A model generated the notes under the pieces. The model saw nothing but the letters and a program-made list of their open reading frames with translations. It ran no database searches and was not told the origin of the DNA. Shown in pieces: positions 2,939 through 59,588 of a stretch of 64,000 bases of DNA; position 1 is the first letter of the stretch, and each line of letters begins with the position of its first letter. Source of the DNA: Patescibacteria group bacterium (GTDB taxonomy: Bacteria > Patescibacteriota > Minisyncoccia > 2-02-FULL-40-12 > IGHO2-01-FULL-4-A); assembly GCA_038064915.1 (NCBI GenBank), contig JBBTSB010000005.1, positions 10,615 through 74,614 on the forward strand, read 5' to 3'. The translations under genes and the position numbers were made by a program.

Positions 2939-5062
2939 ATGCCGTCGTTAGTAATCGTCGAATCTCCAACGAAAGCCAAAACGATTTCCAAATTTCTTGG
3001 CAGCGATTATGTTGTGCGTTCAAGCTTTGGGCATGTGCGGGATTTGCCCAAAAGCAAAATGGGCGTGGATACGGAACACGGCTTTACGCCCAAGTATGTC
3101 ATCCCCATCAAGGCGAAGGAAATCATTGCTGAACTGAAGAATTTGGAAAAGAAAACTGATGAAGTGATCCTCGCTTCCGATGAAGACCGCGAAGGAGAAG
3201 CGATTTCTTGGCATTTAATGCAAGCATTGGAACTCAAGAAACCGAAGCGTATCGTTTTTCATGAGATTACCAAATCATCCATCCTCGAAGCGCTGAAACA
3301 TCCTCGGGAAATAGACATGAAGCTCGTAGACGCGCAACAAGCGCGTCGTATCTTGGATCGTCTTGTTGGCTATGAGCTGTCGCCATTTCTGTGGCGCAAA
3401 ATTCGCTTTGGGCTTTCCGCCGGGCGCGTACAATCTGTTGCCGTGCGCCTAGTAGTGGAACGCGAGCGCGAGATCCAGGCTTTTAAAAAAGACGAATACT
3501 GGACGATTGATGCGATTTTTGATCGCTTCAAAGCGCGCTTAGTCCAAATCGGAGGTAAGAAACTTGATAAGCTTGCAATTCAGAATGAAATTGAAGCAAA
3601 AAAAATAATAGAAGATCTAGAAGGGAAAAAATACGAAGTAAAGGAAATAACAAAGAAAGAGGTTCAGCGCCATCCAGCAGCGCCGTTTACCACATCCACA
3701 CTTCAGCAAGAAGCAAGTCGCAAACTGGGGCTTTCCGCAAAGCAGACTATGATGCTTGCGCAAAAACTCTATGAGACAGGGCAAATCACGTACATGCGTA
3801 CCGATAGTGTAAATCTCGCAGAATCTGCAATTGCGCAGGCACAAGATGTGATCTCGAAGCAATTTGGCAAAGAATACTCCGAACCTCGTCGCTACTCCAC
3901 CAAATCCAAAGGCGCCCAGGAAGCACATGAAGCAATTCGTCCTACGGACTTTTCCCACCAATCAAAAGACAAGCTCTATGATTTGATTTGGAAGCGCGCT
4001 ATTGCTTCACAGATGGCAAGTGCAAAGCTTGATCAAACGAGCGTAGACATAGAGGCAGGAAATCATTTGTTTCGAGCAACCGGTAGCGTCATAAAATTTG
4101 ACGGTTTTATTCGTGCGTATACCGAAGGAAAAGATGAAGAGGAGGAAGTGGAGGGACAACTCCCTGAACTAGAAAAAGGCGAAGCACTCGATCTCAAAAA
4201 ACTTGAGCCCTTACAACACTTCACCGAGCCCCCTCCCCGCTATACAGATGCCACACTTGTCAAAGCCCTTGAAGGTTATGGCATAGGACGACCATCTACA
4301 TACGCGCCAACGCTAGCCACCATTCAAGAAAGGGGTTACGTAGAGAGAATAGACAAAAAATATCAGCCCACGGAGATTGGATTTCTCGTGAACGACATGC
4401 TTGTCGAGAATTTTCCAGAAATCGTCGATATCAACTTTACATCGCTCATCGAAAAGTCTTTTGATGAAATTGCTGAAGGCACAAAGAAGTGGGTACCAGT
4501 GATTTCTGATTTCTATAAGCCCTTTCACGCGCACTTAATAGCAAAAGAGGACGAAGTGAATAAACTGGTTGTTGAGTCCGATGTTGCGTGTGTTCACTGC
4601 GGCAAAAGAATGCTGATCAAGTTTGGCCGCAATGGCAAGTTCCTCGCCTGTCCCGATCCGGAGAGCAAAATCACTCAGCCCATGCCCGAAGAAGCCGCGC
4701 AGATCAAAGCTCTGCAAGAAAAAACCCAAGGCGAGAAATGTCCCATCTGCAGCAAAAATATGGAAATCAAGCGAGGGCGGTTTGGATTTTTCCTTGGATG
4801 TGTGGATTACCCCAAGTGCAAAGGCATCACGAAGATTTTAAACAAGACCGGATTCAAATGTCCGAACTGTTCCGTGGGTGATATCGTCGAGCGCAAATCC
4901 CGCGGACGTGGAAAAGTGTTTTATGCGTGCAGCAGATTTCCCGATTGTACCTTCCTCATGAGCAAGAAACCCGAATCCGAAGCCGATCTCGCTCCAGCTC
5001 TCCAACACTGGAAGGACAATCCACCGAAAGAGAAGAAAGAAAAACCTTGGCAGAAAAAATAA
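2939..5062 (+). CDS. topA: DNA topoisomerase I with C-terminal zinc-ribbon repeats
   Basis: MPSLVIVESPTKAKTISKFLG TOPRIM N-terminus, an active-site Tyr region, and C-terminal C4 zinc ribbons (CVHCGKRM, CPICSKNM, CPNCSVGD). Confidence 0.92.
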   Translation: MPSLVIVESPTKAKTISKFLGSDYVVRSSFGHVRDLPKSKMGVDTEHGFTPKYVIPIKAKEIIAELKNLEKKTDEVILASDEDREGEAISWHLMQALELKKPKRIVFHEITKSSILEALKHPREIDMKLVDAQQARRILDRLVGYELSPFLWRKIRFGLSAGRVQSVAVRLVVEREREIQAFKKDEYWTIDAIFDRFKARLVQIGGKKLDKLAIQNEIEAKKIIEDLEGKKYEVKEITKKEVQRHPAAPFTTSTLQQEASRKLGLSAKQTMMLAQKLYETGQITYMRTDSVNLAESAIAQAQDVISKQFGKEYSEPRRYSTKSKGAQEAHEAIRPTDFSHQSKDKLYDLIWKRAIASQMASAKLDQTSVDIEAGNHLFRATGSVIKFDGFIRAYTEGKDEEEEVEGQLPELEKGEALDLKKLEPLQHFTEPPPRYTDATLVKALEGYGIGRPSTYAPTLATIQERGYVERIDKKYQPTEIGFLVNDMLVENFPEIVDINFTSLIEKSFDEIAEGTKKWVPVISDFYKPFHAHLIAKEDEVNKLVVESDVACVHCGKRMLIKFGRNGKFLACPDPESKITQPMPEEAAQIKALQEKTQGEKCPICSKNMEIKRGRFGFFLGCVDYPKCKGITKILNKTGFKCPNCSVGDIVERKSRGRGKVFYACSRFPDCTFLMSKKPESEADLAPALQHWKDNPPKEKKEKPWQKK

Positions 5063-5186: not shown

Positions 5187-5440
5187 GCCCTTTTTCAAAA
5201 ACCGGTGATTTTTCTGATGTAAAAGTTCTTTCACCTTTTGGAGAAATACCGTGGAATGAGCTTTCTCGATTCAGCGATACAGAAATGAAAAAATTGATGA
5301 TTAATGTCGTAAATCATTGCTATAATTTTCTTTATCTTTTGTATGGTGGCGCCAAAGGCGATGAGATCATTGAACTTTTAAAAGACACAGATCCCATGCC
5401 TCATTGGAACGACCCAACAGGAGAGCTGTACTGAATACGG

Positions 5441-5528
5441 CGGATAGGGTGGGATTCGAACCCACGGTCCGCCTAGGGCGGACGGCGGTTTAGTAAACCG
5501 CTGGTATAAACCACTAACCGACCTATCC
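5441..5528 (-). tRNA. Class II (long variable arm) Ser-like tRNA, apparent anticodon ACU
   Basis: Reverse complement folds as GGATAGG acceptor, T-loop GTGGG-TTCGAAT-CCCAC, variable hairpin GTCCGCC-CTAG-GGCGGAC and G73. The anticodon arm GCGGT-TTACTAA-ACCGC gives an unusual 5'-ACU-3'. No encoded CCA. Confidence 0.6.
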
Positions 5529-5542
5529 AAATTTTGACTTTG

Positions 5543-5630
5543 CGGAGGAGGTGGGACTCGAACCCACGAGCCAGTTTTACCCGGCAACCTCTTTAGCAAA
5601 GAGGCGGAATAGCCGCTATCCGACTCCTCC
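5543..5630 (-). tRNA. tRNA-Ser(GCU)
   Basis: GGAGGAG acceptor, anticodon arm CCTCT-TTGCTAA-AGAGG, long variable arm, T-loop TTCGAGT, G73; 88 nt. Confidence 0.8.
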
Positions 5631-5681
5631 AAATGCTTTTTATGTATACCATTTATTACACTTTTGCGCTATAGTTTCTCT

Positions 5682-6317
5682 ATGTCCAAAAAAGTCTATC
5701 TTGTCCGTCATGGGGAGACGGAAGATCTTGCAAAGAAGTTGCATCAGCAGAATGATTCTGTTCTTTCGGAGCGAGGAAATCAACAGGCGCAAGATGTTGC
5801 GGGGCGTTTTTCCAAAATACGCGCAGATATAGTTTATTCGAGTCCATTTCTCAGAACTCTTCAGACAGCGAAGCACATCGGTACCATAGCAGGTGCACCG
5901 GTTGAAACAAAAGAGCTTCTTCGTGAACGGAAACAACCAAAAGAGATTATGGGAAAACCGCGGGATGATGCGGAAGTGATGCGCATCAAAAACACTATCA
6001 ACGAACACAGACATGATCCCTCGTGGCATTATTCCGACGAAGAAAACTTTTTTGACCTTCGCGGTCGAGTGAAAGAATTTCAGAAATTTGTAGAAAACGA
6101 TACCCAAGAGAACGTGGTGTTAGTATCTCACGCGGTATTCATTAAAATGTTTACGCTGGTGAGTGTTTTTGGAGATTTACTCACACCGGATATGTTTTCA
6201 TCGTATTATCAACATGTGCGAACAAGCCAAACTGGTATTACTATGCTTGAGTTCACTGATAATGAATGGAAGCTTCTTACCTGGAATGATTATGCGCATT
6301 TAGGAGAAAATACATGA
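5682..6317 (+). CDS. Histidine phosphatase family protein (phosphoglycerate-mutase-like)
   Basis: VYLVRHGET catalytic RHG motif plus IVYSSPFLRTLQTA; start ATG 5682. Confidence 0.8.
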   Translation: MSKKVYLVRHGETEDLAKKLHQQNDSVLSERGNQQAQDVAGRFSKIRADIVYSSPFLRTLQTAKHIGTIAGAPVETKELLRERKQPKEIMGKPRDDAEVMRIKNTINEHRHDPSWHYSDEENFFDLRGRVKEFQKFVENDTQENVVLVSHAVFIKMFTLVSVFGDLLTPDMFSSYYQHVRTSQTGITMLEFTDNEWKLLTWNDYAHLGENT

Positions 6318-6795: not shown

Positions 6796-6867
6796 GCACC
6801 CGTCGTTCAACGGATAGGACGCAGGATTGCGGATCCTGCAATAGAGGTTCGATTCCTCTCGGGTGCA
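6796..6867 (+). tRNA. tRNA-Arg, apparent anticodon GCG
   Basis: GCACCCG/CGGGTGC acceptor, D-arm GTTC-AACGGATA-GGAC, anticodon arm CAGGA-TTGCGGA-TCCTG, T-arm AGAGG-TTCGATT-CCTCT, A73. Confidence 0.75.
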
Positions 6868-6892
6868 CACTTTCTTCGCTAAAGCTACGAAG

Positions 6893-6946
6893 TGCAAGCA
6901 AAAAAAGAAAAGGCACGTGATCGGGCGAAGTGTTCTGCCCGCGTGC
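6893..6946 (-). terminator. Rho-independent terminator for the small GC-rich ORF
   Basis: GGCACG..CGGGC...GCCCG..CGTGCC imperfect hairpin followed on the minus strand by a U-run (plus-strand AAAAAAAGAAAA at 6895-6910). Confidence 0.5.
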
Positions 6947-6982
6947 CTCTTGCCAGGTGCTCGGCCGAATTATTTCGCGGCC

Positions 6983-7180
6983 TCAGCTGAACAGCGGCAT
7001 CTGGACGGCGGCTTGAAGGCGCCTGCCCCGATGCTGCTTCACTGCGGCCTTTGCGAGGAGAGCCGCTTCCGCGACCCGTCGCTTGGCCTCCTCCTCGACC
7101 TTGCCCGGTGCGACCGCGCACTCACACGGTCCATCGAGCAGAACGAGGAGCTCCTTGGTCCACGCCGTACGGTTGGCCAT
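6983..7180 (-). CDS. Small GC-rich hypothetical protein (65 aa)
   Basis: ATG preceded by AAGGAGGT (5-nt spacer); ~65% GC (estimated by eye) against AT-rich flanks; sequence MANRTAWTKELLVLLDGPCECAVAPGKVEEEAKRRVAEAALLAKAAVKQHRGRRLQAAVQMPLFS. Confidence 0.55.
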   Translation of the reverse strand: MANRTAWTKELLVLLDGPCECAVAPGKVEEEAKRRVAEAALLAKAAVKQHRGRRLQAAVQMPLFS

Positions 7181-7198
7181 GTGACCTCCTTATTTTGT

Positions 7199-7227
7199 AT
7201 TTTACTATATTTTTATGTTAAAGTCAA
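7199..7227 (-). promoter_or_regulatory. Near-consensus sigma70 promoter TTGACT-N17-TAAAAT for the 65-aa ORF
   Basis: Minus-strand read: TTGACT ttaacataaaaatatag TAAAAT acaaaatAAGGAGGtcacATG. Confidence 0.55.
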
Positions 7228-7231
7228 ATAT

Positions 7232-9238
7232 ATGATTTCTCTCGAAACTTCCATAGAAAACCTGGCCCATGTCGGGCCTCGGACACTTCCGAGGCTGAAG
7301 CGTCTTGGTATCACCAAGGTAAAACATTTACTTTGGCACTTTCCCAGTCGGTATGAGGATTTTGCTGAGATCATTCCCATCGATCAAGCAACGCAAGTAG
7401 ACACGGTAGTGAGTATCCAGGGAGAAGTCCAAAAAATCGAAACTACTCGCGCGTGGCGGAAACACCTTAACATCACTACGGCCTATGTGGCCGATGATAC
7501 CGAGAGCATCCGGGTAGTGTGGTTCAATCAGCCATTCATCGAGCGCTCTCTTCCCGAAGGGACGCGAGTGAGCTGTTCGGGCAAGCTCAAGCTCGATAAA
7601 CGTGGCATCTATCTTTCCAGCCCTAGCTACGAAAAAATCACTCGCGATGAACTAACGCACACCGGGCGCTTGGTACCCGTGTATCCGGAGACGGATGGCA
7701 TTTCATCAAAGTATTTGCGTTTTCTCATCAAGCCCATTCTCGACCAACTCAAGGATGTCCCTGATCCCCTGCCAGTGAGTATCGTACAGAAATTCCAATT
7801 TCCCGATCTCCTCTATTCACTACGCACTATACACTTTCCCGAAACTGAACCTGATACAGTCGCGCCGCGGCAGAGGTTTGCATTTGAGGAATTGTTTTTT
7901 CTCCAGCTCCGTGCACTCATGGATCGCCAGAGAATGAAACTTTTGCCCGCGCCGCGCATTGCTTTTGAAAAAGAAAACATAGCCGCGCTGGTAAAATCTC
8001 TTCCTTTTACACTTACGAACGACCAGCGTCTTGCTGCCTTTGAAATTCTCAAAGACATAGAGCGTTCCTATCCTATGAATCGGCTTTTGAATGGCGACGT
8101 GGGTTCCGGAAAGACGGTTGTGGCACTAATTGCCGCCTATCAAACGGCACGTGCCGGGTATCAAACGGTGTTTATGGCACCGACGGAACTTCTTGCGACG
8201 CAGCACTATGGAACCATTTCAGAGCTCGTCCCCCCGGGTATCTCCCTGGGAATCTTGACGGGTAGCAAGAAAATAAATAAAGATGCTCAGATCATCGTTG
8301 GTACTCATGCCGTGATACAAAAAGGTGTTACGTTTAACAACCTAGGACTTGTGGTGATTGATGAGCAACACAGATTCGGTGTGAAACAGCGCATGAAATT
8401 AATAAAAGACCAAAAGCTCGTTCCGCATCTCCTCTCGATGACGGCGACCCCAATCCCCCGTACGCTGGCGCTGACGATATACGGCGACCTTGATGTGTCG
8501 CTCATCAAAGAAAAACCAAAAGGTCGGCAGGAAATTACCACGAAGGTCGTGTCTCATGAGAAACGAGCGGAAGCATATCAATTTATCGAAAAACAAATCC
8601 AAGAAGGAAGGCAAATTTTTGTGATTTGTCCGCGTATTGAAGCCAGCGAGGCAAAGACAGATATGAAGATGGTGACCGAAGAATTCAAAAAGCTCTCTGC
8701 GCTATTTCCTCATCGAAAAGTTGCCATGATGCACGGGAAGATGAGGGAGAAAGGCGAGATCATGCAAAAATTCAAAGATCATGAGATCGATGTTCTCGTT
8801 TCAACTTCGGTCATTGAAGTTGGTGTCGACGTTCCTAATGCCACGATTATGATGATCGAGTCGGCAGAGCGTTTTGGTCTTGCACAATTGCATCAATTCC
8901 GAGGACGTGTTGGACGCGGTGCACACCAGTCATATTGTCTTTTGTTTACGAGTAGTCCCGATATTACATCAACGCGCCGTCTCAAAGCAATGGAAGCAAC
9001 GAATGATGGCTTTAAACTTGCCGAGATGGATCTCAAAATCCGCGGCCCCGGGCAATTCACCGGCACCATACAGTCCGGTATACCCGATCTTGCCATGGCA
9101 TCGCTCTCTGATATCAACCTCATCAAAACCGCCCGGGATAGTGCCCAAGAACTTTTGAAAGAAGACGCTACGCTTTCACGCTATCCTTTACTTCATGCTC
9201 GTCTGGAAGAGCTTCAGAAGATGGTTCACTTTGAATAG
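7232..9238 (+). CDS. recG: ATP-dependent DNA helicase RecG
   Basis: Wedge domain, helicase motifs NGDVGSGKT, DEQHRFG, TATPIPRT and QLHQFRGRVGRG; real start ATG 7232 (the GC-rich 5' extension of ORF 6863.. is not RecG). Confidence 0.9.
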   Translation: MISLETSIENLAHVGPRTLPRLKRLGITKVKHLLWHFPSRYEDFAEIIPIDQATQVDTVVSIQGEVQKIETTRAWRKHLNITTAYVADDTESIRVVWFNQPFIERSLPEGTRVSCSGKLKLDKRGIYLSSPSYEKITRDELTHTGRLVPVYPETDGISSKYLRFLIKPILDQLKDVPDPLPVSIVQKFQFPDLLYSLRTIHFPETEPDTVAPRQRFAFEELFFLQLRALMDRQRMKLLPAPRIAFEKENIAALVKSLPFTLTNDQRLAAFEILKDIERSYPMNRLLNGDVGSGKTVVALIAAYQTARAGYQTVFMAPTELLATQHYGTISELVPPGISLGILTGSKKINKDAQIIVGTHAVIQKGVTFNNLGLVVIDEQHRFGVKQRMKLIKDQKLVPHLLSMTATPIPRTLALTIYGDLDVSLIKEKPKGRQEITTKVVSHEKRAEAYQFIEKQIQEGRQIFVICPRIEASEAKTDMKMVTEEFKKLSALFPHRKVAMMHGKMREKGEIMQKFKDHEIDVLVSTSVIEVGVDVPNATIMMIESAERFGLAQLHQFRGRVGRGAHQSYCLLFTSSPDITSTRRLKAMEATNDGFKLAEMDLKIRGPGQFTGTIQSGIPDLAMASLSDINLIKTARDSAQELLKEDATLSRYPLLHARLEELQKMVHFE

Positions 9239-33512: not shown

Positions 33513-33546
33513 AGAAAATAATTAACTATTATCACCATGGTAGCAA

Positions 33547-33578
33547 CAACAAAACCGCCTTGCAAGGCGGTTTTGTTG
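33547..33578. terminator. Bidirectional rho-independent terminator AAAACCGCC-TTGCAA-GGCGGTTTTGTTG
   Basis: 6-bp GC stem flanked by an A-run and a T-run. Confidence 0.65.
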
Positions 33579-33589
33579 TAAGCAGTGGA

Positions 33590-34048
33590 CCAGGGGGTAT
33601 TGAAACCCCGTCTGGAAATATGTTTAACCGAGTACTACACGCGTAGCCCATCTTCTGTACAGATGATACTCAAAGTCGGGCGAAACGTATCATCCGTGTA
33701 CTGATTGATACAATGCATATCCAGCAGGACAACTAGAGATACAAGGCTACTCGCTTTTGACGCCCACTCCTCCTAGCGAGTATCAGGGGGTGAACGACAG
33801 CTTAACCGAAGTTAGGCTGTAGCGTATCCATAGCCGGAGCTATAGGCAGCTGAATAGGTGTTTTTAGCACTTATAGGTTTGCGAATAGTTTCACGAGGTG
33901 TTCGCAAGCTCGGCGTGCACTTGGTGTAAAGGTACTTCCATCAAAACTCGCAGGCCCATATGAAAATACTAACGCATTTCGTAAAAAAGTGTTACAACCC
34001 GCAGGGCCGACGCGTCGCCTTTCGGCAACGATCGACCCCACGGGGGAG
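33590..34048 (-). other. ~460-nt hairpin-rich non-coding segment (candidate structured RNA or long 3' UTR) between the GC-rich ORF and the terminator
   Basis: No ORF over 30 codons with an SD; several inverted repeats (GTATCA..TGATAC, TTGCGAA..TTCGCAA, GCC-TTTC-GGC); I could not match tmRNA or RNase P hallmarks by eye. Confidence 0.35.
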
Positions 34049-34642
34049 CTACTGGATGCGGTGCGGCGCGGGAACGCTCCCTAGCAGGAGCCGGCGGAGG
34101 TCGAAGAACTCGCAGATGAAGTTCTTCGCGAGCTCATCGAACCGTCGCGCCTTGTCCTCGGGGACGCTGGCGATCTGACCGATCGTCAGGACCTCGAGCC
34201 CGTTGACTCCGAGGCCGCAGAGGGCGATGAGGGCCTTGACGAGCTCGATGTGCGTGTCGGTGAAGGAAGTCTCCGAGGACCTCTTGGGAGGCTCGAAGAG
34301 CTCCATCATCCTCGCCTCGCCGACCTTGCTGAGGACCGGGACGCGGTAGTGGGTGCCGCCGGCCTTGCCCCAGGCGATCCGGAGAAGCCCGCGCTCGCGG
34401 AGCATGTTCCAGTTCGCCGTGAGGTGCGCCTTCCCGCCGACGTCGGCGACGGCGCGACGGAGCCGATGGAGGCCGATCCCGATCGCACCCCTCCGGTTCA
34501 CCCACAGCTTGTTGTCGTCGATGAACCGGTTGACGTTCACGACGAGCTTCGCGAAGTCCTCGAGTTTCGTGGTGACCCGGGGGAGCTCGCTTACCAGTGC
34601 GAGATCCAGCCCAGGCATCATGCCGTCGCTTCGCATACTCAT
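34049..34642 (-). CDS. GC-rich hypothetical protein (197 aa), probably horizontally acquired
   Basis: ~65% GC (estimated by eye) with very high GC3; AAGGAGGA SD 8 nt before the ATG; no catalytic motif recognised. Confidence 0.6.
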   Translation of the reverse strand: MSMRSDGMMPGLDLALVSELPRVTTKLEDFAKLVVNVNRFIDDNKLWVNRRGAIGIGLHRLRRAVADVGGKAHLTANWNMLRERGLLRIAWGKAGGTHYRVPVLSKVGEARMMELFEPPKRSSETSFTDTHIELVKALIALCGLGVNGLEVLTIGQIASVPEDKARRFDELAKNFICEFFDLRRLLLGSVPAPHRIQ

Positions 34643-34708
34643 ACCTTCATTCCTCCTTGTTGGTCTGTGTACGAAAAGCCGCGGGGGATCCGCGACTATC
34701 GTGAATGA

Positions 34709-34737
34709 ATCATAGCACTATAGTATAAAATAGTCAA
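34709..34737 (-). promoter_or_regulatory. Near-consensus sigma70 promoter TTGACT-N17-TATGAT for the 197-aa ORF
   Basis: Minus strand: cTTGACTattttatactatagtgcTATGATtc, ~65 nt upstream of the ATG. Confidence 0.55.
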
Positions 34738-35171
34738 GTTTTTAGTTCCCTTGCGATTGTGCGTTTTGCTTCGCGTTTTTTGATGGTTTCGCGTTTGTCG
34801 TATTTCTTTTTGCCTCGCGCGATGCCGAGTTCGAGCTTGAGGAGGCCGTGGTGGTCAAAGATTTTGAGGGGAACGAGGGTAAGACCGCGTTCATCGGCTT
34901 TGCCGATGAGGTATTTGAGTTCTGATTTTTTTAAAAGTAGCTTGCGTGTGCGCTGATCGTCGTAGTCTTTTGGCATATTCCCCGGCTGGTAGGGGGCGAT
35001 GGTGGCGCCCACAAGATATGCCTCACCCCCGAGGATTTTTACGTACGATCCCTTGATAGAAATCTTGCCGGTGCGGATAGATTTTACTTCAGGGCCATGC
35101 AAAACGAGACCAGCGGTAAGGGTTTCCAAAATTTCATAATCGAACCTAGCTTGTTGATTTTCGATTTGCAT
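34734..35171 (-). CDS. smpB: SsrA-binding protein
   Basis: ARFDYEILETLTAGLVLHGPEVKSIRTGKISIKGSYVKILGGEAYLVGATIAPY...KLLLKKSEL.. aligns with SmpB; start ATG 35171. Confidence 0.9.
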   Translation of the reverse strand: MQIENQQARFDYEILETLTAGLVLHGPEVKSIRTGKISIKGSYVKILGGEAYLVGATIAPYQPGNMPKDYDDQRTRKLLLKKSELKYLIGKADERGLTLVPLKIFDHHGLLKLELGIARGKKKYDKRETIKKREAKRTIARELKT

Positions 35172-35436
35172 TTTCGTTTTTTTGATGAGTATACTCCAAA
35201 AGTCGCAGCCCAAGAAATCTTCTTCCTTGAGTAGTTTTTAGATAATGTTCTCTTCGTCTAGCATCCTGTTCGTTTGTACAACCCTCGAAGTATATCAAAT
35301 TAAACGGCAAGCGGAACTTAGTCGAAAAGGTACGACCCTTCTTATGTTGTTCGATTCTTTGACGGAGATTGCTCGTATACCCAGTATACCTATCTCCATC
35401 TTTCAAACTTTCAAGAACATAAATATAGAAAAACAT
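35146..35436 (-). CDS. GIY-YIG nuclease family small protein
   Basis: YIYVLESLKDGDRYTGYTSNLRQRIEQH GIY-YIG motif. Confidence 0.75.
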   Translation of the reverse strand: MFFYIYVLESLKDGDRYTGYTSNLRQRIEQHKKGRTFSTKFRLPFNLIYFEGCTNEQDARRREHYLKTTQGRRFLGLRLLEYTHQKNENANRKSTS

Positions 35437-56969: not shown

Positions 56970-56997
56970 CTTGACCAAATATAGAATAGGTATATAA
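56970..56997 (+). promoter_or_regulatory. Near-consensus sigma70 promoter TTGACC-N16-TATAAT for the GC-rich two-gene cassette
   Basis: cTTGACCaaatatagaataggtaTATAATtacg. Confidence 0.5.
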
Positions 56998-57028
56998 TTA
57001 CGTTAAGCCTGTGGAAAGGGGGAAGAAA

Positions 57029-57367
57029 GTGAAATGTGGGGTGAGGGGTCCTGATCGTGACACGATTCTTCAGATGCCGACGAAGGTCTACGAAAGATGG
57101 CTCTTGGATGAGGAAGCGCTCGAGTACTATGTCCGCGGAGGACCGGATGAAGACCGGCACATCTGGCTCCTCGACGGTGAGCGGAACGTCCTGATCGAGC
57201 TAAAGCAGGGATACAGGAGTACCGATCACTGGAGCGACAGGGTGGGAGAAACTATCGGCAAGGTGATAGAGAAGTTGAAAGCAGAGGGTAAGCGTCCACG
57301 CTTCGCCCTGATCATCAACGATCCGCCCGGCATGGACGGATGCCAAGGTCTCTACGTCATCGCATAA
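57029..57367 (+). CDS. GC-rich hypothetical protein (~112 aa; alternative GTG start at 57011)
   Basis: SD AAGGGGGAAG 6 nt before GTG 57029; elevated GC (~55-58%, estimated by eye); sequence ...LDGERNVLIELKQGYRSTDHWSDRVGETIGKVIEKLKAEGKRPRFALIINDPPGMDGCQGLYVIA. Confidence 0.5.
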   Translation: MKCGVRGPDRDTILQMPTKVYERWLLDEEALEYYVRGGPDEDRHIWLLDGERNVLIELKQGYRSTDHWSDRVGETIGKVIEKLKAEGKRPRFALIINDPPGMDGCQGLYVIA

Positions 57368-57376
57368 GGAGTAGCC

Positions 57377-57541
57377 ATGAAGCATCGACCGTGCAGTTGT
57401 ACCAAAAAGATCCAGGAACTCGAGAGCAAGCTGCAAAAGATCGGGGAGCGTGTGCTCGGACTCGAAGCGCTTGCGATGCAAAAGGCCCTCCGAGATTTAC
57501 GAGCTGAGGCTCGGCTTCTCAAGGAGGAGCTTGAACGGTGA
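57377..57541 (+). CDS. Small coiled-coil protein (54 aa), second gene of the GC-rich cassette
   Basis: AAGGAG SD 6 nt before ATG 57377; MKHRPCSCTKKIQELESKLQKIGERVLGLEALAMQKALRDLRAEARLLKEELER; not in the supplied ORF track (under 60 aa). Confidence 0.5.
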   Translation: MKHRPCSCTKKIQELESKLQKIGERVLGLEALAMQKALRDLRAEARLLKEELER

Positions 57542-57581
57542 TAGTTCTCTGCCAAGTCCAGGGATAGGCTCCGGGTTGCGC

Positions 57582-57623
57582 GGTATCCTGTGCGCGTAAA
57601 AAGCGGATACCATCTTTTTTTTT
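57582..57623 (+). terminator. Rho-independent terminator GGTATCC-N16-GGATACC followed by T9
   Basis: 7-bp stem plus a poly-T run; a second hairpin AAATCCCC-GAAA-GGGGATTT follows at 57644-57663. Confidence 0.6.
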
Positions 57624-57683
57624 GGCGCTAAGAAACAAGGCATTAAATCCCCGAAAGGGGATTTAATGTTGAGACCGAAATAT

Positions 57684-58253: not shown

Positions 58254-58424
58254 CTAGATACTATATACTACAAAAGAAAAAGAAAAAACTTACGATAAAC
58301 TGAGATTGTTAAAAGAGTTTCAATAGTGACAAAATAAACAACACGCCAGCAACGATCAGATAAATTCCATTTCGTGACCGGAAGTAAAGAAATATTCCAC
58401 AGAGCATGAGAATAAAATAAATCA

Positions 58425-58750
58425 TTTGCTCCCGGGCAGGGACTCAGTCGCGCCTCTCGCGATGCCGTCGCATCGCTCGGGCTGACCACCACCTCGCGGA
58501 TTCATCTGCTGATTCATCATCGCTCCGGCGTTCTCGCCCTGACGTGAGTGCGATTGCGCACTCACTCCCGTCATCAAACGTGAAGCGTTTGCTCCCGGGC
58601 AGGGACTCAGTCGCGCCTCTCGCGATGCCGTCGCATCGCTCGGGCTGACCACCACCTCGCGGATTCATCTGCTGATTCATCATCGCTCCGGCGTTCTCGC
58701 CCTGACGTGAGTGCGATTGCGCACTCACTCCCGTCATCAAACGTGAAGCG
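58425..58750. repeat. Two perfect 163-bp tandem repeats, each a 142-bp GC-rich unit plus the last 21 nt of tRNA-Gln
   Basis: Units 58425-58587 and 58588-58750 appear identical; each starts with TTTGCTCCCGGGCAGGGACTC (reverse complement of the tRNA-Gln 3' end) and carries the hairpins GCGATGC-CGTC-GCATCGC and GTGAGTGCG-ATT-GCGCACTCAC. Confidence 0.85.
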
Positions 58751-58754
58751 TTTG

Positions 58755-58825
58755 CTCCCGGGCAGGGACTCGAACCCCAATTACATGATTCAGAGTCATG
58801 TGTCCTACCATTAGACGACCCGGGA
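58755..58825 (-). tRNA. tRNA-Gln(CUG)
   Basis: U1:A72 and G73; D-arm GTCT-AATGGTA-GGAC; anticodon arm CATGA-CTCTGAA-TCATG; T-arm TGGGG-TTCGAGT-CCCTG. Confidence 0.8.
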
Positions 58826-59348: not shown

Positions 59349-59588
59349 ATGTACACGCTTTACCTCATGCTCTGTCGCGACGACTCCATCTACACCGGCA
59401 TTACGACGGATATGGAACGGAGATTTAAGGAGCACCAAAATGGAGAGGGGAGCAGGTATACGCGGGCGAAAAAGGCAGTGAAGATTTTGTATACGGAAAA
59501 GTTTAAGACGCGAAGTAAAGCGTCAAAGAGGGAATATGAGATCAAGAGCTGGAGTAGGCAGAGAAAGTTAGCTATGATCAGCATATGA
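59349..59588 (+). CDS. GIY-YIG nuclease family small protein
   Basis: YTLYLMLCRDDSIYTGITTDMERRFKEHQNG GIY-YIG motif. Confidence 0.75.
   Translation: MYTLYLMLCRDDSIYTGITTDMERRFKEHQNGEGSRYTRAKKAVKILYTEKFKTRSKASKREYEIKSWSRQRKLAMISI

Follow-up and report, generated by a model that had tools for sequence, protein, structure and literature searches.

Genes for tRNA and transfer-messenger RNA (tmRNA, the product of ssrA) are classic integration sites at their 3′ ends. Phage morons, reportedly described by Hendrix, Juhala and colleagues in about 2000, are autonomous promoter-gene-terminator units of deviant composition that lie between prophage genes. Genomic islands of the Islander type (Mantri and Williams, 2004, cited in PMC4131195) are integrated at tRNA and tmRNA genes. 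Classical islands occupy the 3′ end of the RNA gene, extend over kilobases, and carry a tyrosine or serine integrase. Here, we analyzed a 64,000-nucleotide (nt) stretch of DNA (the window) from a groundwater member of the Patescibacteria (Parcubacteria, Yanofskybacteria-like), in which an open reading frame (ORF) of 197 amino acids (aa) separates smpB, the gene for the SsrA-binding protein, from ssrA. With moderate confidence, we read this locus as a foreign block of approximately 0.7 kb with one orphan, moron-like gene in the smpB-ssrA slot, the promoter of which (P1) would also feed ssrA, with RNase P releasing the tmRNA.

As at the Islander-type islands, DNA of foreign composition lies beside ssrA (GC content at third codon positions, GC3, of 0.90 versus 0.49), the site is reused across lineages, and target duplications occur in two related loci (L102 and L001). 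The distribution is patchy, the slot being empty in L091 to L093 and L100 and otherwise filled in L094 to L103, and some tRNA genes elsewhere in the window likewise have GC-rich oddities directly beside them. The locus differs from such islands in that the insert lies 5′ of ssrA, measures 0.7 kb, and holds a single gene, with no integrase and no clear direct repeat in the window. Like a phage moron, the unit is a small single gene of sharply deviant composition with its own sigma-70-type promoter, a strong Shine-Dalgarno (SD) sequence, and a downstream hairpin, and this design was found three times in the window. Unlike a moron, it sits outside a prophage, with no phage genes nearby and no PHROG or phage match; its terminator is noncanonical, and it may be transcriptionally fused to ssrA. 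The likeness to integron gene cassettes is superficial (small single-ORF units, an imperfect palindrome after them, and a fixed site): the unit has its own promoter upstream, the hairpin lacks an attC R′/R″ core (GTTRRRY), there is one cassette only, and the genes called in the surrounding 20-kb locus include no intI. Our literature searches returned no description of repeated use of a slot 5′ of ssrA at the smpB stop, and nothing relevant on genes between an ssrA promoter and the tmRNA or on GIY-YIG genes with tmRNA in bacteria.

Composition and orphan status of the 197-aa ORF

The GC content of the ORF was 0.655, compared with a mean of 0.472 for the window, and 300-nt windows across it reached 0.65 to 0.69. 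Among the window's ORFs of at least 150 aa, GC3 was 0.494 ± 0.09, which puts the 197-aa ORF at +4.5 standard deviations as the only one more than 3 away. GC at its first, second, and third codon positions was 0.65, 0.41, and 0.90, respectively, and this pattern (GC3 >> GC1 > GC2) was limited to the 197-aa frame; the other frames of the GC-rich block, which hold ORFs of 120 to 152 aa, showed shifted, wrong-frame patterns. Because the codon-position signature is absent from the alternative frames, the ORF appears to be the true frame of a high-GC genome. Judged by its composition, it is a genuinely coding and foreign gene, putatively acquired horizontally from a genome of the ~65% GC type. A preliminary description had proposed a compositionally foreign, self-contained-looking expression unit beside smpB, and the GC3 outlier, the promoter, and the SD, all found where they had been placed (Table 1), bear this out. 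The neighboring gene is smpB indeed, its product being 100% identical to an NCBI protein named SmpB.

The 197-aa protein had no relatives in any collection that we searched. Its sole match among 5.8 billion protein clusters was itself ("hypothetical protein, Patescibacteria group bacterium"), and an exhaustive phmmer search of 1.84 billion cluster representatives likewise returned only itself. There was no match in Pfam (E ≤ 1), PHROGs, PADLOC, or NCBIfam, and no meaningful match among Protein Data Bank sequences; nothing real turned up when phage and plasmid records, IMG/VR, and JGI metagenomes were searched in translation. We disregarded a match to an IMG/VR viral contig (L081; residues 123 to 167, 42%) as due to chance, since the matched stretch is antisense to a genuine phage gene and the pattern DTHIELVK had seeded it, and a plasmid tblastn match (E of 0.4) inside an ABC transporter as noise. 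That the protein might be a common conserved core gene is set aside by these searches. A single-sequence AlphaFold model had a predicted local distance difference test score (pLDDT) of 48.9, which was too poor for a fold search; the protein has an ordinary composition, with helices and strands predicted in this low-pLDDT model. A winged-helix identity, hinted at by a helix-helix-β-hairpin in the same model, failed the hhalign and BLAST tests, and a motif read by eye (GLL..GK..GG..YR..P) as shared by the 197-aa protein and the L101/L103 cargo proteins was supported by neither BLASTP nor hhalign (probability of 0.1%). A permissive Rfam scan of 33940-34760 gave no family at an E of ≤1. The protein is most likely the product of an accessory, moron-like passenger gene. 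For a toxin or defense-like role, which had been suggested earlier and for which all four family collections were empty, or for a DNA-binding or RNA-partner role, we found no evidence.

ssrA and transcription across the slot

Behind the ORF, the preliminary description had placed a hairpin-rich noncoding tail of ~460 nt (33590-34048) as a possible RNA component of the cargo, suspecting a tmRNA without seeing one. Rfam model RF00023 matched 33583-33957 over its whole length (1-374 of 374) with 90.7 bits (gathering score of 47; E of 6.2e-34). By this match, the supposed tail is the bacterium's ordinary, full-length ssrA gene plus a spacer of 91 nt (33958-34048), and the RNA is the resident ssrA. 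The hairpin reported at 33547-33578 as the end of the cargo unit does exist, as a perfect palindrome with the stem AAAACCGCCUUG/CAAGGCGGUUUU and a U-rich tract behind it, but the terminator belongs to ssrA.

The predicted tmRNA aligned end to end with the tmRNAs of 13 relatives. Its 5′ GGGCCUG pairs with the 3′ CUGGUCC-A in a tRNA-Ala-like acceptor that has a G3-U pair and one U-U mismatch; the T-arm is GGGGUUUCAAUACCCC, and CCA is not encoded in ssrA. The alanine resume codon GCU is followed by AKNTYSAAYSSGYGYATA and then UAA, giving a tag of 18 aa that ends in ATA. This frame is in register with the tags that ARAGORN gives for the relatives (AKNNYSGALAFA and similar, AKNNYS...), the tag of the closest relative, L001, likewise ends in ...ATA, and the window tag looks lineage-typical. 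The gene is like other tmRNAs of RF00023 that occur with smpB in being one-piece, with tRNA-like ends, the G3-U pair, an alanine resume codon, a tag ORF, and a stop codon; as most relatives do, the window has it on the smpB strand and downstream of that gene. It differs from the tmRNAs of the clade in having the lowest Rfam score (90.7 versus 106 to 149 bits), a longer tag with the ATA ending, the acceptor-stem mismatch, and a distance of 776 nt from smpB, compared with ~50 nt in relatives. Overall, the tmRNA looks intact, as does the adjacent smpB. ARAGORN called no tmRNA in the window, a negative that is overruled by Rfam, and also missed those of L001 and L002 (2 of the 13 relatives tested), a sensitivity limit in this clade; because of these misses, tmRNA may be under-called in Patescibacteria.

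Contigs of four independent assemblies have an end within 33550-33694, a stretch that covers the ssrA terminator and the 3′ part of the gene, L084 to L086 ending and L088 to L090 starting there; the last 33 nt of the European Nucleotide Archive (ENA) contig L084 had no match to the window. These breaks could reflect strain heterogeneity at the 3′ end of ssrA, the classical site of island integration, or an assembly break induced by the hairpin. In L075, the tmRNA profile match is split by ~3.1 kb (4653-4767 and 7929-8003), so that ssrA there could be interrupted or could contain an island or an intron, and L004 (5417-5931) holds a tmRNA with an internal insertion of ~170 nt, the Rfam match being 517 nt long.

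The P1 promoter scores 10/12 and has an extended TG. Its −35 hexamer begins 3 nt ahead of where the smpB stop codon ends, so that the TGA falls inside the hexamer. A promoter scan of the region found 2 sites compared with 1.4 expected, and the P1 site alone is not beyond chance. The 5′ hairpin at the start of the P1 transcript (−21 kcal/mol, z of −2.3) was terminator-like in one scan and is possibly an mRNA-stabilizing 5′ stem or a weak smpB terminator. It holds adjacent BamHI (GGATCC) and SacII (CCGCGG) sites, and in L001 (GATCCGCTTTGCGGATC) and L005 (GGGGATCCCGCC), GC hairpins containing GGATCC likewise come after the smpB stop or promoter, which may be a coincidence or a conserved element.

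At the other end of the ORF, 33950-34060 folds with −48.6 kcal/mol (z of −4.0), and none of 200 shuffles was as stable. The 21-bp hairpin in this stretch is not a canonical intrinsic terminator, since its run of six U's begins ~9 to 10 nt past the stem, and two terminator scans called no terminator between the ORF and ssrA. The promoter-like P2 (GTAACA-N18-TAGTAT) ends 8 nt before G1 of the tmRNA and scores 8/12 without an extended TG, compared with 10 to 11/12 for the ssrA promoters of relatives. In those relatives, a strong promoter stands directly before the tmRNA where the gap allows, its −10 ending 6 to 9 nt from G1, and in loci with a short gap (L002, L016, and L005), the −35 of the ssrA promoter overlaps the end of smpB, as P1 does. 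In L034, L018, and L006, which have a terminator or an opposite-strand gene in between, ssrA has its own 10 to 11/12 promoter 6 to 9 nt upstream; in L001 and L005, which have a same-strand GIY-YIG gene in that place, a strong promoter is located upstream of that ORF and none adjoins ssrA. The promoter layout predicted for the window resembles that of the GIY-YIG loci.

Because no canonical terminator follows the ORF and only a degenerate promoter adjoins ssrA, P1 probably also feeds ssrA by read-through. In such a model, P1, as a strong promoter at the smpB stop, would transcribe the orphan gene, and transcription would probably continue into ssrA. RNase P, which is known to process the tmRNA 5′ end (reportedly a finding of Komine et al. 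in 1994), would then cut at G1 and release the tmRNA, and the 21-bp hairpin would remain to protect the 3′ end of the mRNA.

Table 1. Features of the smpB-ssrA locus and of the other units in the window
Feature	Position	Strand	Basis
smpB (SsrA-binding protein), 145 aa, ATG at 35171	34734-35171	−	Pfam PF01668, 8.7e-52
P1, sigma-70-like promoter TTGACT-N17-TGcTATGAT	34709-34737	−	Consensus scan
GC-rich 5′ hairpin GUCGCGG-AUCCC-CCGCGGC, then UUUUCG, at P1 transcript start	34678-34696	−	Fold
Shine-Dalgarno AAGGAGGA, 8 nt 5′ of ATG	34651-34658	−	Read from sequence
197-aa orphan ORF	34049-34642	−	ORF call
21-bp GC-rich hairpin, GAAA loop, 5 nt past ORF stop codon	33998-34044	−	Fold
AT-rich segment TGTAACAC...GCGTTAGTAT containing weak promoter-like P2	33966-33996	−	Consensus scan
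ssrA (tmRNA), complete, one-piece	33583-33957	−	Rfam RF00023
tmRNA tag reading frame	33812-33868	−	Alignment with relatives
Perfect 17+17 palindrome, ssrA terminator	33546-33579	−	Palindrome scan; directly 3′ of tmRNA
Small GIY-YIG ORF, 96 aa, overlapping smpB start; neighbor outside the unit	35146-35436	−	Pfam PF01541, 9.1e-16
Second unit: TTGACT-N17-TAAAAT (7227-7199), AAGGAGG, 65-aa ORF (6983-7180), hairpin and T-run	6885-7227	−	
Third unit: TTGACC-N16-TATAAT (56971-56998, 11/12), two ORFs, hairpin and T-run	56971-57625	+	

The smpB-ssrA slot in related lineages and similar units in the window

We compared 80 smpB loci from species-representative genomes, in which the best matches were Minisyncoccia and Yanofskybacteria with SmpB proteins at most 75% identical to that of the window. 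ssrA was located by Rfam and an nhmmer profile, and closer relatives (L091 to L103) were reached via SmpB variants of 80 to 85% identity and their contigs. ssrA was downstream of smpB on the same strand in 58 loci, with a median gap of ~50 nt (interquartile range, 18 to 123). The gap exceeded 200 nt in 10 loci, half of which hold a small same-strand GIY-YIG gene (L001, L005, L033, L050, and L059). The slot of L018 contains a PPK2 gene on the opposite strand. That of L034, which is from the same aquifer, contains a 166-aa ORF with a GC3 of 0.79 in a locus of 45% GC; its promoter (TTGACG-N17-TATATT) lies 4 nt past the smpB stop. A strong terminator closes this ORF, and ssrA there has its own 11/12 promoter. 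L034 also carries, at 5282-5784 on the minus strand, two overlapping small opposite-strand ORFs of 95 and 72 aa with their own SD, in a toxin-antitoxin-like layout; neither had a Pfam or PADLOC match.

The closer relatives whose slots were compared (SmpB 80 to 83% identical) keep the htrA-like/129-aa/smpB synteny but vary in the slot. It is empty in L091 to L093 (32 nt) and L100 (24 nt). L097 to L099 have an 813-nt gap with a same-strand ORF (GC1/2/3 of 0.58/0.39/0.86), L101 and L102/L103 have a same-strand ORF of 323 to 337 aa, and L094 to L096 have a low-GC ORF on the opposite strand and an inverted ssrA. By all-versus-all BLASTP, blastn, and one hhalign comparison, the cargos were unrelated to each other and to the 197-aa protein, except for L101 with L102/L103. 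Apart from the PPK2 and GIY-YIG genes, none of the cargos tested had a family, defense, phage, plasmid, or viral match, and a search for donors of the L098, L034, and L103 cargos in phages, plasmids, and IMG/VR gave nothing. An LmuB match of the L103 cargo (PADLOC, E of 0.0016) was disregarded as a match of the coiled-coil tail. The surveyed lineages of related Parcubacteria thus have a different gene in the slot or none, and the comparison, which took in about 70 related Patescibacteria loci, marks the smpB-ssrA spacer as what is, by all appearances, a hypervariable site of recurrent capture and replacement in this clade.

Signs of insertion were found in relatives. Empty sites read ...GGGCTTTACAAAGGTAA|GAAAATTTGCTATGATACGT...|GGG, the last being the start of the tmRNA. 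In L102, a copy of the native smpB tail and promoter (36/38 identical; 0/1,000 shuffles) follows the 1.7-kb cargo on its right-hand side and immediately precedes the tmRNA, and the functional smpB has a different tail, ending in ...AAGTTGACA. In L001, a 39-nt direct repeat that takes in the first bases of the tmRNA brackets an insert of 1.5 kb. The target duplicates that bracket the cargo in L102 and L001 indicate insertion rather than slow divergence, at the point where the smpB tail meets the ssrA promoter; the end that was interrupted would have been restored by the incoming DNA. The window, L098, and L102 agree in having a TTGAC −35 exactly at position −3 relative to the smpB stop and a spacer of 17 nt, and the flank of L098 contains a degenerate copy of the window's smpB tail and P1 start (0/1,000 shuffles). 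L098 and L102 share the window's left-junction layout; therefore, the left junction is common while the cargo differs. On the right flank, TGTAAC...CGTTAGTA resembles the native-like segment of L102, a likeness that 22 of 2,000 dinucleotide shuffles reach; the AT-rich segment compared with L091 or L100 was not significant. This segment (33966-33996) is possibly a relic of a former smpB stop and ssrA leader. A 10-nt direct repeat (9/10, TCCCCCGYGG) and a 10-nt inverted repeat flanking the ORF, considered as element ends, are parts of the hairpins and of a size expected by chance. The nearest gene of the Phage_integrase type is ~6 to 7 kb away, beyond ssrA, and is syntenic in relatives.

Small GIY-YIG genes (86 to 96 aa) recur around smpB and ssrA, in L091 to L093 directly after ssrA. 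A second copy in the window (59349-59588, plus strand), assigned by eye only, lies near a tRNA-Gln gene. This suggests that the small GIY-YIG genes are mobile, favoring t(m)RNA neighborhoods. As small free-standing genes (PF01541; YhbQ/UPF0213-like), they fill the identical slot of five relatives, in the same orientation and apparently between a promoter and the tmRNA, as the window cargo does. The window cargo differs from them in having no GIY-YIG or other nuclease motif and a foreign composition, whereas the GIY-YIG genes match the GC content of their host. The neighbors of the cargo unit are smpB, ssrA, an htrA-like gene, and argS.

The preliminary description had also seen the same design at two other places in the window and proposed a family of mini-cassettes. 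Two further units of similar design are present (Table 1), but their proteins and DNA are related neither to each other nor to those of the first, so that the three units would form a class by design (moron-like) rather than a sequence family. The 65-aa ORF of the second unit has a GC content of 0.67 and a GC3 of 0.77, and the unit abuts the 3′ end of tRNA-Arg (6796-6868). The third unit holds a 118-aa ORF (57011-57367) and a 54-aa ORF (57377-57541); their GC content is 0.55, and their GC3 is 0.67 and 0.60, respectively. Promoter-like sites of at least 10/12 number 12 on both strands of the 64 kb, and a TTGAC −35 occurs in only these three units. The proteins of the second and third units had no PHROG, PADLOC, or NCBIfam family match, and that of the second had no Pfam match either; the sole match of the 118-aa protein in a word-seeded search of 5.8 billion proteins was a 99% copy from the same aquifer.

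Two other oddities in the window involve tRNA genes or the second unit. At 58420-58771, in a region of 59% GC, a 163-nt unit is tandemly duplicated with 99% identity (58420-58582 and 58583-58745), and a third copy, which is partial (58746-58771), runs into the 3′ end of the tRNA-Gln gene (58754-58825, minus strand). Each 163-nt unit starts with a copy of the 3′ 18 to 26 nt of this tRNA, and the arrangement looks like stacked att-type scars or an array of tRNA 3′ fragments. In the ORF list, 6863-9238 (plus strand) fuses a recG-like gene, whose true start is probably the ATG at 7231, with an upstream GTG at 6863; this fusion masks the opposite-strand, GC-rich 65-aa ORF, and automated annotation could err likewise.

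Alternative readings and significance

We consider it extremely improbable that the block is an assembly artifact, i.e., a chimeric join of a fragment from a high-GC organism into a Patescibacteria contig. The abrupt GC shift, the low coverage given in the name of the ENA contig (~5×), and the clustering of several assemblies' contig ends in the nearby 3′ part of ssrA would fit such a join, but the smpB|ORF|ssrA junctions are identical in five assemblies from different runs and assemblers: the metagenome-assembled genome of the window, GCA_964360345.1 (on a 107-kb contig), ERZ1292643 (from Hainich well H51; ENA), and the per-run Logan assemblies of ERR3858113 and ERR3858115. The contigs from the four other assemblies carry the same SmpB and the 197-aa ORF at the same spacing, with 100% identity through both junctions. 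Moreover, the same genome flanks the block on both sides, the ORF is set exactly behind the SD and promoter, sister lineages hold analogous cargos in the same slot, and the contig breaks lie away from the edges of the block. A block without a functional gene, i.e., a decaying high-GC passenger or pseudogene or a GC-rich structured RNA in which an ORF survives through few stop codons, is highly improbable. The long ORFs in other frames and the lack of a homolog that would prove conservation speak for it, as do the identical copies, which give no polymorphism to measure selection; the codon-position pattern confined to one frame, an ORF that takes up the block between a strong SD at good spacing and the hairpin, the ordinary makeup of the protein with its predicted helices and strands, and the empty Rfam scan all speak against it. 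Somewhat less remote, though still improbable, is a functional tie of the cargo to trans-translation or phage conflict, as a modulator or inhibitor of tmRNA-SmpB, an immunity or defense gene, or a toxin or antitoxin, which would explain why several unrelated cargos accumulate in one slot. The autonomy of the unit, with its strong promoter and SD, and the toxin-antitoxin-like ORF pair of L034 agree with such a tie. However, no PADLOC, Pfam, PHROG, or NCBIfam match points to it in any cargo, the winged-helix hint failed its tests, and cargos that are mutually unrelated and include one housekeeping-type PPK2 gene fit a neutral hotspot better.

The closest competitor to the model with P1 feeding ssrA, one that we regard as possible if somewhat unlikely, is a pair of independent units: P1 would drive the orphan gene only, ending at the 21-bp hairpin and U-run, and ssrA would be expressed from the weak P2, the cargo lying merely beside ssrA and neither using nor feeding its expression. 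In its favor, the TAGTAT of P2 ends at exactly the distance from G1 that is canonical in L002, L007, L034, and L076, a very stable hairpin and UUUUUU stand between the ORF and P2, and L034 and L102 clearly show a two-promoter arrangement. Against it are the low score of P2 without an extended TG, the distance of the U-run from the stem with neither scan calling a terminator, and the fact that tmRNA is normally a very abundant RNA. We rate co-transcription only slightly above two independent units. Several points weigh against the reading of a captured block that feeds ssrA. The 21-bp hairpin with its late U-run could terminate a fraction of the transcripts, P2 at its canonical position could suffice for ssrA, and weak terminator-like hairpins before ssrA in L033 and L059 make the terminator/promoter dichotomy among relatives imperfect. 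No integrase or transposase is found in or adjoining the GC-rich block. The P1 and P2 flanks, considered as duplicates made by insertion, were not significant (83/500 shuffles), nor was a precise insertion between the ssrA −10 and leader (TGCTATGAT | ACGTTAGTA) in an unbiased spliced alignment to the native promoter (75/300); the likeness of the right-flank TGTAAC...GCGTTAGTA to L102 stands at ~0.01 and was chosen post hoc. All available copies of the ORF are identical, offering no polymorphism or dN/dS (ratio of nonsynonymous to synonymous substitution rates) by which to gauge current selection, and an intact ORF in DNA of 65% GC is only mild evidence of function. Going further than the block reading, one may imagine that the junction of smpB tail and ssrA promoter is a dedicated capture site in this clade, which we consider unlikely: integrase-less single-gene cassettes would be inserted and swapped there, each with a replacement SmpB tail and a TTGAC −35 over the stop codon, their cargos coming from an unsampled high-GC pool (GC3 of 0.8 to 0.9, no relatives in ~15 billion proteins). 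Such a pool might be a virus or plasmid, so far unknown, that belongs to these ultra-small bacteria or to the hosts they live on, and the cassette promoter would take over ssrA, with RNase P splitting the mRNA-tmRNA precursor.

The annotation of the 197-aa ORF is best kept as "hypothetical, horizontally acquired." Interest now centers on the repeated use of the slot at the smpB stop, on a possible joint transcript of mRNA and tmRNA, and on the high-GC source of several of the orphan cargos. The slot lies on the 5′ side of ssrA and holds tiny, integrase-less single genes, several of which have an extreme GC3 and no relatives. Should the ssrA promoter carry the cargo along, this would be a case of one of the cell's strongest promoters being borrowed by a selfish or accessory gene. 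Orphan genes of 65% GC in highly reduced genomes of 45 to 50% GC pose a testable question on gene flow into candidate-phyla bacteria.

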